Shown: piece after piece, positions 1 through 1,231 of the stretch
How positions within the stretch are numbered: position 1 is the stretch's first letter
How the letters are laid out: the number at the start of each line of letters is the position of its first letter
Made by a program: the position numbers and the translations under genes
The notes under the pieces: generated by a model
Database searches by the model: none
Seen by the model: the letters and a program-made list of their open reading frames with translations, nothing else
Told to the model about the DNA's origin: nothing
Source of the DNA: Escherichia coli
GTDB lineage: Bacteria > Pseudomonadota > Gammaproteobacteria > Enterobacterales > Enterobacteriaceae
NCBI RefSeq assembly: GCF_003334765.1
Contig: NZ_QOWT01000081.1
Reading direction: 5' to 3' (one strand)
Length of the DNA: 1,231 nt

Positions 1-12
1 CGGCTAAGTGAG
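1..12 (+). repeat. Inner part of the left terminal inverted repeat (IRL); outer ~27 bp including the TGATC terminus lie outside the window
   Basis: cggctaagtgag (1..12) is the imperfect inverted counterpart of ctcgcttaggcc (1193..1204) at the inner end of the right repeat: reverse complement of 1193..1204 is ggcctaagcgag, matching 1..12 at 10 of 12 positions. Confidence 0.65.
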
Positions 13-18
13 TAAACT
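13..18 (+). promoter_or_regulatory. Candidate -10 hexamer (TAAACT) for the orfA/orfB transcript; any -35 would lie in the IRL portion outside the window
   Basis: taaact at 13..18, about 20 nt upstream of the ATG at 39, at the IRL boundary where IS3-family promoters usually sit. Only a motif match; weak. Confidence 0.3.
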
Positions 19-26
19 CTCAGTCA

Positions 27-32
27 GAGGTG
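27..32 (+). promoter_or_regulatory. Shine-Dalgarno sequence for orfA
   Basis: gaggtg at 27..32, 6 nt upstream of the ATG at 39..41. Confidence 0.6.
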
Positions 33-38
33 ACTCAC

Positions 39-338
39 ATGACAAAAACAGTATCAACCAGTAAAAAACCCCGTAAACAGCATTCGCCTGAATTTCGCAG
101 TGAAGCCCTGAAGCTTGCTGAACGCATCGGTGTTACTGCCGCAGCCCGTGAACTCAGCCTGTATGAATCACAGCTCTACAACTGGCGCAGTAAACAGCAA
201 AATCAGCAGACGTCTTCTGAACGTGAACTGGAGATGTCTACCGAGATTGCACGTCTCAAACGCCAGCTGGCAGAACGGGATGAAGAGCTGGCTATCCTCC
301 AAAAGGCCGCGACATACTTCGCGAAGCGCCTGAAATGA
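39..338 (+). CDS. insE: IS3 OrfA (InsE): small DNA-binding transposition regulator, 99 aa, with helix-turn-helix N-terminus and leucine-zipper-like C-terminus
   Basis: ATG 39..41 preceded by an SD; TGA stop 336..338. Translation [50 protein letters not shown]... matches IS3 InsE as I recall it. The track ORF starts at GTG 30, but the ATG at 39 with proper SD spacing is the more credible start. HTH-like segment about 96..176; heptad hydrophobic repeat (I70/L77/L84, L73/L87) about 219..320. Confidence 0.92.
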
Positions 339-1201
339 AGTATGTCTTTATTGAAAAACATCAGGCTGAGTTCAGCATCAAAGCAATGTGCCGCGTGCTC
401 CGGGTGGCCCGCAGCGGCTGGTATACGTGGTGTCAGCGGCGGACAAGGATAAGCACGCGTCAGCAGTTCCGCCAACACTGCGACAGCGTTGTCCTCGCGG
501 CTTTTACCCGGTCAAAACAGCGTTACGGTGCCCCACGCCTGACGGATGAACTGCGTGCTCAGGGTTACCCCTTTAACGTAAAAACCGTGGCGGCAAGCCT
601 GCGCCGTCAGGGACTGAGGGCAAAGGCCTCCCGGAAGTTCAGCCCGGTCAGCTACCGCGCACACGGCCTGCCTGTGTCAGAAAATCTGTTGGAGCAGGAT
701 TTTTACGCCAGTGGCCCGAACCAGAAGTGGGCAGGAGACATCACGTACTTACGTACAGATGAAGGCTGGCTGTATCTGGCAGTGGTCATTGACCTGTGGT
801 CACGTGCCGTTATTGGCTGGTCAATGTCGCCACGCATGACGGCGCAACTGGCCTGCGATGCCCTGCAGATGGCGCTGTGGCGGCGTAAGAGGCCCCGGAA
901 CGTTATCGTTCACACGGACCGTGGAGGCCAGTACTGTTCAGCAGATTATCAGGCGCAACTGAAGCGGCATAATCTGCGTGGAAGTATGAGCGCAAAAGGT
1001 TGCTGCTACGATAATGCCTGCGTGGAAAGCTTCTTTCATTCGCTGAAAGTGGAATGTATCCATGGAGAACACTTTATCAGCCGGGAAATAATGCGGGCAA
1101 CGGTGTTTAATTATATCGAATGTGATTACAATCGGTGGCGGCGGCACAGTTGGTGTGGCGGCCTCAGTCCGGAACAATTTGAAAACAAGAACCTCGCTTA
1201 G
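39..1201 (+). CDS. OrfAB fusion transposase (InsEF) made by programmed -1 ribosomal frameshift at 302..305; roughly 385-390 aa
   Basis: The -1 frame is open without stops from the slippery site (302..305) through the orfB ATG at 335 to the stop at 1201, so a -1 slip on the Lys codon AAG (303..305) fuses OrfA residues 1..89 to the full OrfB frame. This is the established expression mechanism for the IS3 family. Confidence 0.8.
302..323 (+). promoter_or_regulatory. Programmed -1 frameshift signal: A-AAG slippery motif (302..305) followed by a GC-rich hairpin (stem 308..312 / 319..323)
   Basis: Zero-frame codons caa-aag (300..305) give the A_AAG motif. Directly downstream, cgcga (308..312) can pair with tcgcg (319..323) around a 6-nt loop, and the following gcgcc (326..330) could add tertiary pairing. 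IS3 frameshifting is known to use an A-AAG motif plus a downstream structured stimulator; I have not folded the complete structure. Confidence 0.7.
335..1201 (+). CDS. insF: IS3 OrfB (InsF): transposase catalytic domain, DDE/RNase H-like integrase fold, 288 aa as an independent frame
   Basis: ORF in the -1 frame relative to orfA; ATG 335..337 overlaps the orfA stop (ATGA); TAG stop 1199..1201. DDE triad at D135 (WAGD, nt 737..739), D195 (HTD, nt 917..919) and E231 (VESFF, nt 1025..1027), with 36 residues between the second D and the E. Sequence matches IS3 InsF by recall. Confidence 0.92.
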
Positions 1202-1231
1202 GCCTGTGTCCATATTACGTGGGTAGGATCA
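1193..1231 (+). repeat. Right terminal inverted repeat (IRR), about 39 bp, ending in the canonical IS3-family 5'-TGATC...-3' terminus when read from outside
   Basis: Reverse complement of the window end is tgatcctacccacgtaatatggacacaggcctaagcgag, a typical IS3-group terminus with TG at the tip. Its inner portion pairs imperfectly with 1..12. The orfB stop codon TAG (1199..1201) lies inside the repeat, as is usual for IS3-family elements. Confidence 0.85.

Follow-up and report, generated by a model that had tools for sequence, protein, structure and literature searches.

The window, by which we mean the whole analysed stretch of 1,231 nucleotides, contains two overlapping genes, orfA (39–338) and orfB (335–1201), in frames 0 and −1, with an A_AAG motif in the overlap, and thus displays the layout of the IS3 family. 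It is the insertion sequence IS3 itself, not merely an IS3-like element. The features are listed below with the basis for each.

1–1231, plus strand: IS3, nucleotides 28–1258 of the 1258-bp element (100% identity to E. coli genome and plasmid copies).
39–338, plus strand: orfA (insE), 99 aa, N-terminal DNA-binding/regulatory part, frame 0 (list of open reading frames; identical to K-12 InsE1; positions 1–87 of the NCBIfam transpos_IS3 model).
302–305, plus strand: A_AAG slippery tetranucleotide, predicted site of programmed −1 frameshifting from orfA into orfB (motif match to PMC4066793; frame arithmetic).
306–346, plus strand: putative 5′ part of the frameshift-stimulating RNA structure, the IS3 pseudoknot (PMC4066793 and a predicted hairpin).
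335–1201, plus strand: orfB (insF), 288 codons plus stop, −1 frame relative to orfA (list of open reading frames; identical to K-12 InsF1; AlphaFold pLDDT 95).
737–739, plus strand: D135 (D234 in OrfAB), first catalytic Asp, codon GAC, in β-strand 1 (invariant; aligns with HIV-1 integrase D64).
917–919, plus strand: D195 (D294 in OrfAB), second catalytic Asp, codon GAC, right after β-strand 4 (invariant; aligns with D116).
1025–1027, plus strand: E231 (E330 in OrfAB), catalytic Glu, codon GAA, near the N-terminus of the helix after strand 5 (invariant; aligns with E152).
1046–1048, plus strand: K238, basic residue at E+7, codon AAA (kept in at least 90% of 112 relatives; aligns with HIV-1 integrase K159).
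1192–1231, plus strand: right terminal inverted repeat (IRR), ending ...GGATCA-3′ (28 of 40 positions match the reverse-complemented left repeat, IRL, of the complete copy at locus L001).

Over its full length (1–1231), the window showed 100% DNA identity to copies in thousands of E. coli replicons, chromosomes as well as plasmids. In a megablast search against complete E. coli genomes, 4685 of 5426 had a match, with a median of 3 places per genome with any match, and 3817 of the 5426 contained a site spanning 80% or more of the window. These genomic matches carry the annotation 'IS3-like element IS3 family transposase', some of them with a programmed frameshift, and full-length IS3 matches at 100% were likewise detected in 2679 plasmid records. 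A complete copy of 1258 bp lies in locus L001 (NZ_CP025916; L001:1474–2731), where the CDS is labelled as a programmed-frameshift product; the stretch identical to the window (L001:1501–2731) stops on the last base of the IRR.

Compared with IS3A of K-12 MG1655, a single base differs, G instead of A at window position 173, and the change is synonymous. It converts CAA to CAG in a Gln codon of orfA, and the exact sequence of the window is present in many other genomes. The OrfA protein is identical to K-12 InsE1 (NP_414832.2). The comparison with the reference InsF proposed in the earlier note gave zero substitutions, as OrfB is identical to K-12 InsF1 (NP_414833.1); relative to a 288-aa variant called 'insF for IS3D' by one source, OrfB has three substitutions, all at non-catalytic positions.

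The 288-codon orfB frame had been described as free of internal stops and frameshifts, and it is open throughout: translation of 335–1198 yields 288 aa with zero internal stops, whereas a frame of this length would stay open by chance with a probability of ~1e-6 under a simple 61/64 model. Within OrfB, an HTH_21 region (aa 53–102) is followed by the rve catalytic core (aa 126–287). Upstream, window positions 296–310 read CCTCCAAAAGGCCGC, in agreement with the IS3 frameshift window CCUCCA-ZZZN-GCCGC reported in PMC4066793. The IS3 pseudoknot begins at the GCCGC right after the frameshift motif, and its 3′ half lies beyond the UGA stop (PMC4066793). RNA folding predicted a hairpin pairing 311–320 with 337–346, so that both the stop codon of orfA and the ATG of orfB lie within it. 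For the 125 nt folded around the frameshift site, the z-score was just −1.4, a nested fold being unable to display a pseudoknot. When the window was scanned against Rfam at E≤1, no family matched, leaving the IS3 frameshift pseudoknot without a covariance-model match. As judged from the sequence, orfA, orfB and A_AAG are intact, and so is the stimulator as far as it was checked (its 5′ start and the predicted hairpin). The earlier argument against a decayed pseudogene copy is strengthened by the intactness of orfA, A_AAG and the start of the stimulator, and by 100% DNA identity to thousands of copies.

Frameshifting at A_AAG would generate an OrfAB fusion of 387 aa, equal in length to the CDS annotated 'programmed frameshift'. 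The predicted fusion is exactly equal to no retrieved protein, and the cause is the junction convention: residue 88 (window 299–307) is P in RefSeq/PGAP products, compared with Q88-K89 from a −1 slip on A_AAG. Automatic annotation seems to join the frames a codon upstream of where the literature puts the slip.

The family models place the two genes on one enzyme. With the NCBIfam equivalog NF033516 (transpos_IS3), the score was 339.2 bits against a cut-off of 160; OrfA covers model positions 1–87 and OrfB positions 90–369. Pfam detected rve (126–222, 1.3e-27), rve_2 (231–287, 2.2e-20) and HTH_21 (53–102, 6.6e-12) on OrfB, and the NCBIfam IS481 and IS6 models scored far under their cut-offs. 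The profile search that had been suggested as a check thus assigns OrfB to the rve/IS3 transposase family. Could OrfB alone (InsF, 288 aa, starting at the ATG at 335) be the functional product, with the triad working there instead of in the fusion? It has its own ATG, InsF is annotated as a separate CDS in K-12, and OrfB of ISSau2 cleaved ends in vitro by itself (PMC5771124). The N-terminal part of the transposase model (1–87), however, is on OrfA, with OrfB covering only 90–369; RefSeq annotates the 387-aa programmed-frameshift product; OrfAB is named as the transposase in the literature (PMC3219604; bioRxiv 10.1101/2023.06.07.543989); and the window retains both the slippery site and the stimulator. 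We consider it very improbable that OrfB works alone. The predicted active enzyme is the OrfA–OrfB frameshift fusion.

The earlier note had assigned a complete catalytic triad, D135, D195 and E231, to OrfB, and translation located all three residues exactly where they had been placed. The span given for them, 737–1027, runs precisely from the first base of the D135 codon to the last base of the E231 codon. The motif WAGDITY starts at residue 132, VHTDRGGQY at 192 and the motif around E231 at 229. The spacing between the second Asp and the Glu, described as 36 and retroviral-integrase-like, agrees with the sequence: E231 lies 36 positions after D195, with 35 residues between them, which is the classical D(35)E, and the distance in HIV-1 integrase is likewise 36 (E152 minus D116). 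D135 and D195 are 60 positions apart. The claim that a K/R-rich region is preserved downstream held in part. Single basic positions, K238 and R269, are conserved, but the region as a whole is not K/R-rich, with 12.3% of these residues in 232–288 compared with 15.6% in the whole protein.

A word-indexed homologue search returned near-identical copies only, which were unusable for measuring conservation, and diversity was obtained from 50%-cluster representatives. An exhaustive HMMER search of 1.84 billion such representatives identified 64,153 relatives, and the conservation set comprised OrfB and 111 full-length relatives with 36–57% identity (n = 112). Only six columns are invariant in these 112 OrfBs, namely G65, D135, H193, D195, E231 and H271, and K238 and R269 are each kept in at least 90% of them. 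D-D-E-K was present in 120 of 120 near-identical database proteins. Among 150 of the 50%-cluster representatives, those deficient in the triad are truncated or chimeric fragments, or are substituted at the second D or the E; they look as decayed copies do. The invariant residues beside the DDE positions are encoded at 527–529 (G65), 911–913 (H193) and 1145–1147 (H271). H193 supplies the histidine of the H-T/S-D motif and corresponds to H114 of HIV-1 integrase, which has this motif too, and H271 is located in the C-terminal rve_2 region (N-R-x-R-x-H-S).

We then compared OrfB with retroviral integrases. HMMER against deltaretroviral (STLV/HTLV) integrases aligned both aspartates, D135 with the Asp of GDIT and D195 with the Asp of TDNG. 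Matches to integrases in the PDB, obtained with either the single protein or the 112-sequence profile, end before E231, so hhalign and structure prediction were needed for this residue. Aligning the family profile to HIV-1 integrase with hhalign placed OrfB 128–241 onto integrase 57–162 (E = 6.4e-5; probability only 64%, the target being a single integrase sequence). The alignment paired D135 with D64, D195 with D116 (H-T-D in both), E231 with E152 and K238 with K159, and the E231/E152 pair lies within an ungapped block with V-E-S on both sides. The HIV-1 integrase sequence used is in register with PDB 8w34_A over 1–288, with few substitutions and none at D64, D116, E152 or K159.

Sequence and profile searches of the PDB returned no IS3-family transposase structure; the matches were to retroviral integrases only, at E of 1e-5 or weaker. 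Because of this, the geometry of the triad rests on prediction. An AlphaFold model built from the 112-sequence alignment had a mean pLDDT of 95 and a pTM of 0.85, with the topology β1-β2-β3-α1-β4-α2-β5-α4. Its strands comprise residues 131–141, 144–153, 158–165, 191–194 and 215–218, and helix α4 comprises 228–242. D135 is predicted in β1, D195 one residue past β4 and E231 in α4, an arrangement that, in the model, is the canonical RNase H-like one. The N-terminal 91 residues of OrfB are confidently predicted to be all-helical (pLDDT about 92–98). Querying the PDB with the model in Foldseek gave IS21 IstA, TnsB and retroviral integrases as the top matches, all with a probability of 1.00.

That D135, D195 and E231 are the catalytic positions follows from the agreement of four independent lines of evidence, namely family models, conservation, integrase alignment and structure. 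We looked specifically for what the earlier note had named as speaking against its claim, residues that fall off the catalytic columns of the family or are substituted there; they proved invariant in the 112 proteins and aligned to D64, D116 and E152. A D/D/E pattern could also arise from a chance open reading frame, from a misassigned motif or with the true gene on the opposite strand. Two minus-strand ORFs of 91 aa do exist, at 203–478 and 938–1213, overlapping orfA and orfB, but family, conservation and fold data overwhelmingly support the plus-strand frame, and the probability of such an origin is negligible. Neither minus-strand ORF matched an NCBIfam family at E≤0.1, and both were treated as non-coding. 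Collectively, the four lines of evidence make it almost certain that 737–1027 encodes the core of a DDE active site, RNase H-like and of the retroviral-integrase type, belonging to the IS3 transposase, and no result spoke against this. The earlier reading of the triad as an intact catalytic site is supported, with two qualifications: one concerns the enzyme, which would be OrfAB, and the other concerns mobility.

How the site would act can be outlined from what is established for DDE enzymes and for IS3-family elements (PMC3219604; bioRxiv 10.1101/2023.06.07.543989). A ribosome translating orfA would slip by −1 at A_AAG (302–305) in a fraction of passages, giving the 387-aa OrfAB, whose N-terminal helix-turn-helix would bind the terminal inverted repeats. 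The carboxylates of D234, D294 and E330 (OrfAB numbering) would hold two divalent metal ions, which are expected to activate first water, so that the 3′ end is cleaved behind the terminal CA, and subsequently the freed 3′-OH for strand transfer. In the copy-out-paste-in pathway, one end would attack the same strand beside the other end to form a figure-of-eight, and replication of this intermediate would yield an IS circle with abutted ends, which would in turn undergo cleavage and integration. OrfA and OrfB produced by non-frameshifted translation would serve as regulators, not as the enzyme. Both the assignment of OrfAB as the transposase and the copy-out-paste-in pathway are described in bioRxiv 10.1101/2023.06.07.543989. 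The same study found DDE-mutant transposases of IS629, an IS3-family element, to be inactive, the readout being the loss of IEE-promoted IS excision. In the literature searched, we found no mutational data on the triad of IS3 itself.

An intact reading frame alone does not establish mobility, which also involves the element ends. The complete copy at L001 has imperfect inverted repeats, with IRL and IRR matching at 28 of 40 positions, and its TGATC...GATCA termini lie 1258 bp apart. An inverted-repeat finder with a 9-nt seed missed these imperfect terminal repeats, and the figure of 28 of 40 came from direct comparison. The window contains the IRR, ending in CA, with the tip of the IRL outside it; the identical copy at L001 has TG...CA termini. 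The window starts 27 nt into IS3 and thereby misses the IRL tip TGATCTTACCCAGCAATAGTGGACACG, whereas its right edge coincides with the last base of the IRR. Its left edge is either a boundary of the window or contig (a collapsed-repeat contig) or a real truncation of the left end, and a boundary is more likely. This copy may be immobile despite an intact enzyme.

One could accordingly read the element as a dead, 5′-truncated IS3 that lacks the 27-bp IRL tip, with DDE residues that survive solely because little time has passed since the truncation or because sister copies still use the enzyme in trans. The asymmetry between the two edges, one 27 nt within IS3 and the other exactly on the IRR terminal base, fits such a history, and left-end damage is real in some copies, K-12 IS3A being one without the terminal TGA. 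Position 1 may, however, be a mere window or contig boundary: short-read assemblies often give contigs of ~1.2 kb for IS3, cluster members lie on contigs of 1146–1258 bp, and every inspected copy identical to the window runs on into a normal IRL. We regard a dead element as unlikely, and this reading leaves the triad undisputed as the catalytic site. Considered on its own, a genuine loss of the outermost 27 bp of the left inverted repeat from a copy that retains a perfect transposase gene is quite improbable. If such a 27-bp loss had occurred, the element would be one-ended and unable to move itself, yet it would supply OrfAB and the OrfA and OrfB regulators to sister copies, or would drive one-ended events. 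Even then, the catalytic site would show nothing new.

Two further observations concern the ends of other copies. The K-12 MG1655 IS3A is annotated as 1255 bp, and at its left end ...GTGCC is followed by TCTTACCC (L003:25–40; NC_000913.3 about 315224–315239). It is without the terminal TGA, including the conserved 5′-TG, that the L001 copy has, and it may be defective at one end. The flanks of IS3 at L001, the one complete copy examined for them, are CAC and AAA and form no 3-bp direct repeat; the window holds no flanking DNA. The L001 copy (flanks 1464–1473 and 2732–2741) is bordered by a frameshifted dgcT and by a truncated pseudogene of ACP S-malonyltransferase. These flanks suggest an IS-associated deletion or rearrangement as opposed to a simple insertion.

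The significance of the locus reaches little beyond correct annotation: it holds a standard, apparently functional IS3 transposase gene and not a pseudogene. Such annotation is of use in repeat masking, in reading assembly breaks and in anticipating IS3-mediated insertions in the host strain.

Among solved structures, the best Foldseek matches to OrfB were IS21 IstA and Tn7/CAST TnsB, in which HTH-type domains precede a DDE RNase H-like core. Identity to OrfB is 11–16% and the global rmsd is 17–23 Å, meaning that domains superpose and the full chain does not. IS21 and Tn7/CAST are other IS/transposon families, which need the helper ATPases IstB and TnsC, respectively.

Retroviral integrases (HIV-1 with D64, D116, E152 and K159; RSV; HTLV/STLV) share with OrfB the RNase H-like fold, as predicted here, together with D,D(35)E, H-T-D, V-E-S and a basic residue at E+7. 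They differ in showing just ~12–20% identity to OrfB and in the distance between the two aspartates, which is 52 positions in HIV-1 compared with 60 here. Integrase carries a zinc domain at its N-terminus and an SH3-like domain at its C-terminus, whereas OrfAB has an HTH and leucine-zipper N-terminus. Additionally, IS3-family enzymes have a single helix in place of integrase helices 2 and 3 (PMC3219604).

Closer relatives are IS2 and IS911, which, like IS3, have OrfA and OrfB joined by a −1 frameshift and follow a two-step pathway through a figure-of-eight and a circle. In the IS2 transposase, the triad is D240/D306/E342 (OrfAB numbering), with a W three residues ahead of the first D and, before the E, a hydrophobic residue corresponding to HIV-1 V151 (PMC3219604). 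The W-x-x-D motif, the 36-position D-to-E offset and the hydrophobic residue before E are common to IS2 and OrfB (W132 and V230 here). IS2 and IS911 belong to other subgroups, however, and relatives outside the IS3 group had ~36–57% identity in the set examined. The frameshift signals also differ, as the A_AAA_AAG heptamer of IS911 is accompanied by a Shine-Dalgarno sequence and by a stem-loop, and the tetramer of IS3 by a pseudoknot (PMC4066793).

The closest known system is IS3 of E. coli (InsE/InsF, OrfAB; IS3 group of the IS3 family), whose A_AAG motif, stimulator start and IRR are the same as those in the window. The window differs from it in lacking the first 27 nt of the IRL and in the one synonymous base that separates it from K-12 IS3A. 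The triad matches the textbook description throughout, and the finding is one already known for IS3.
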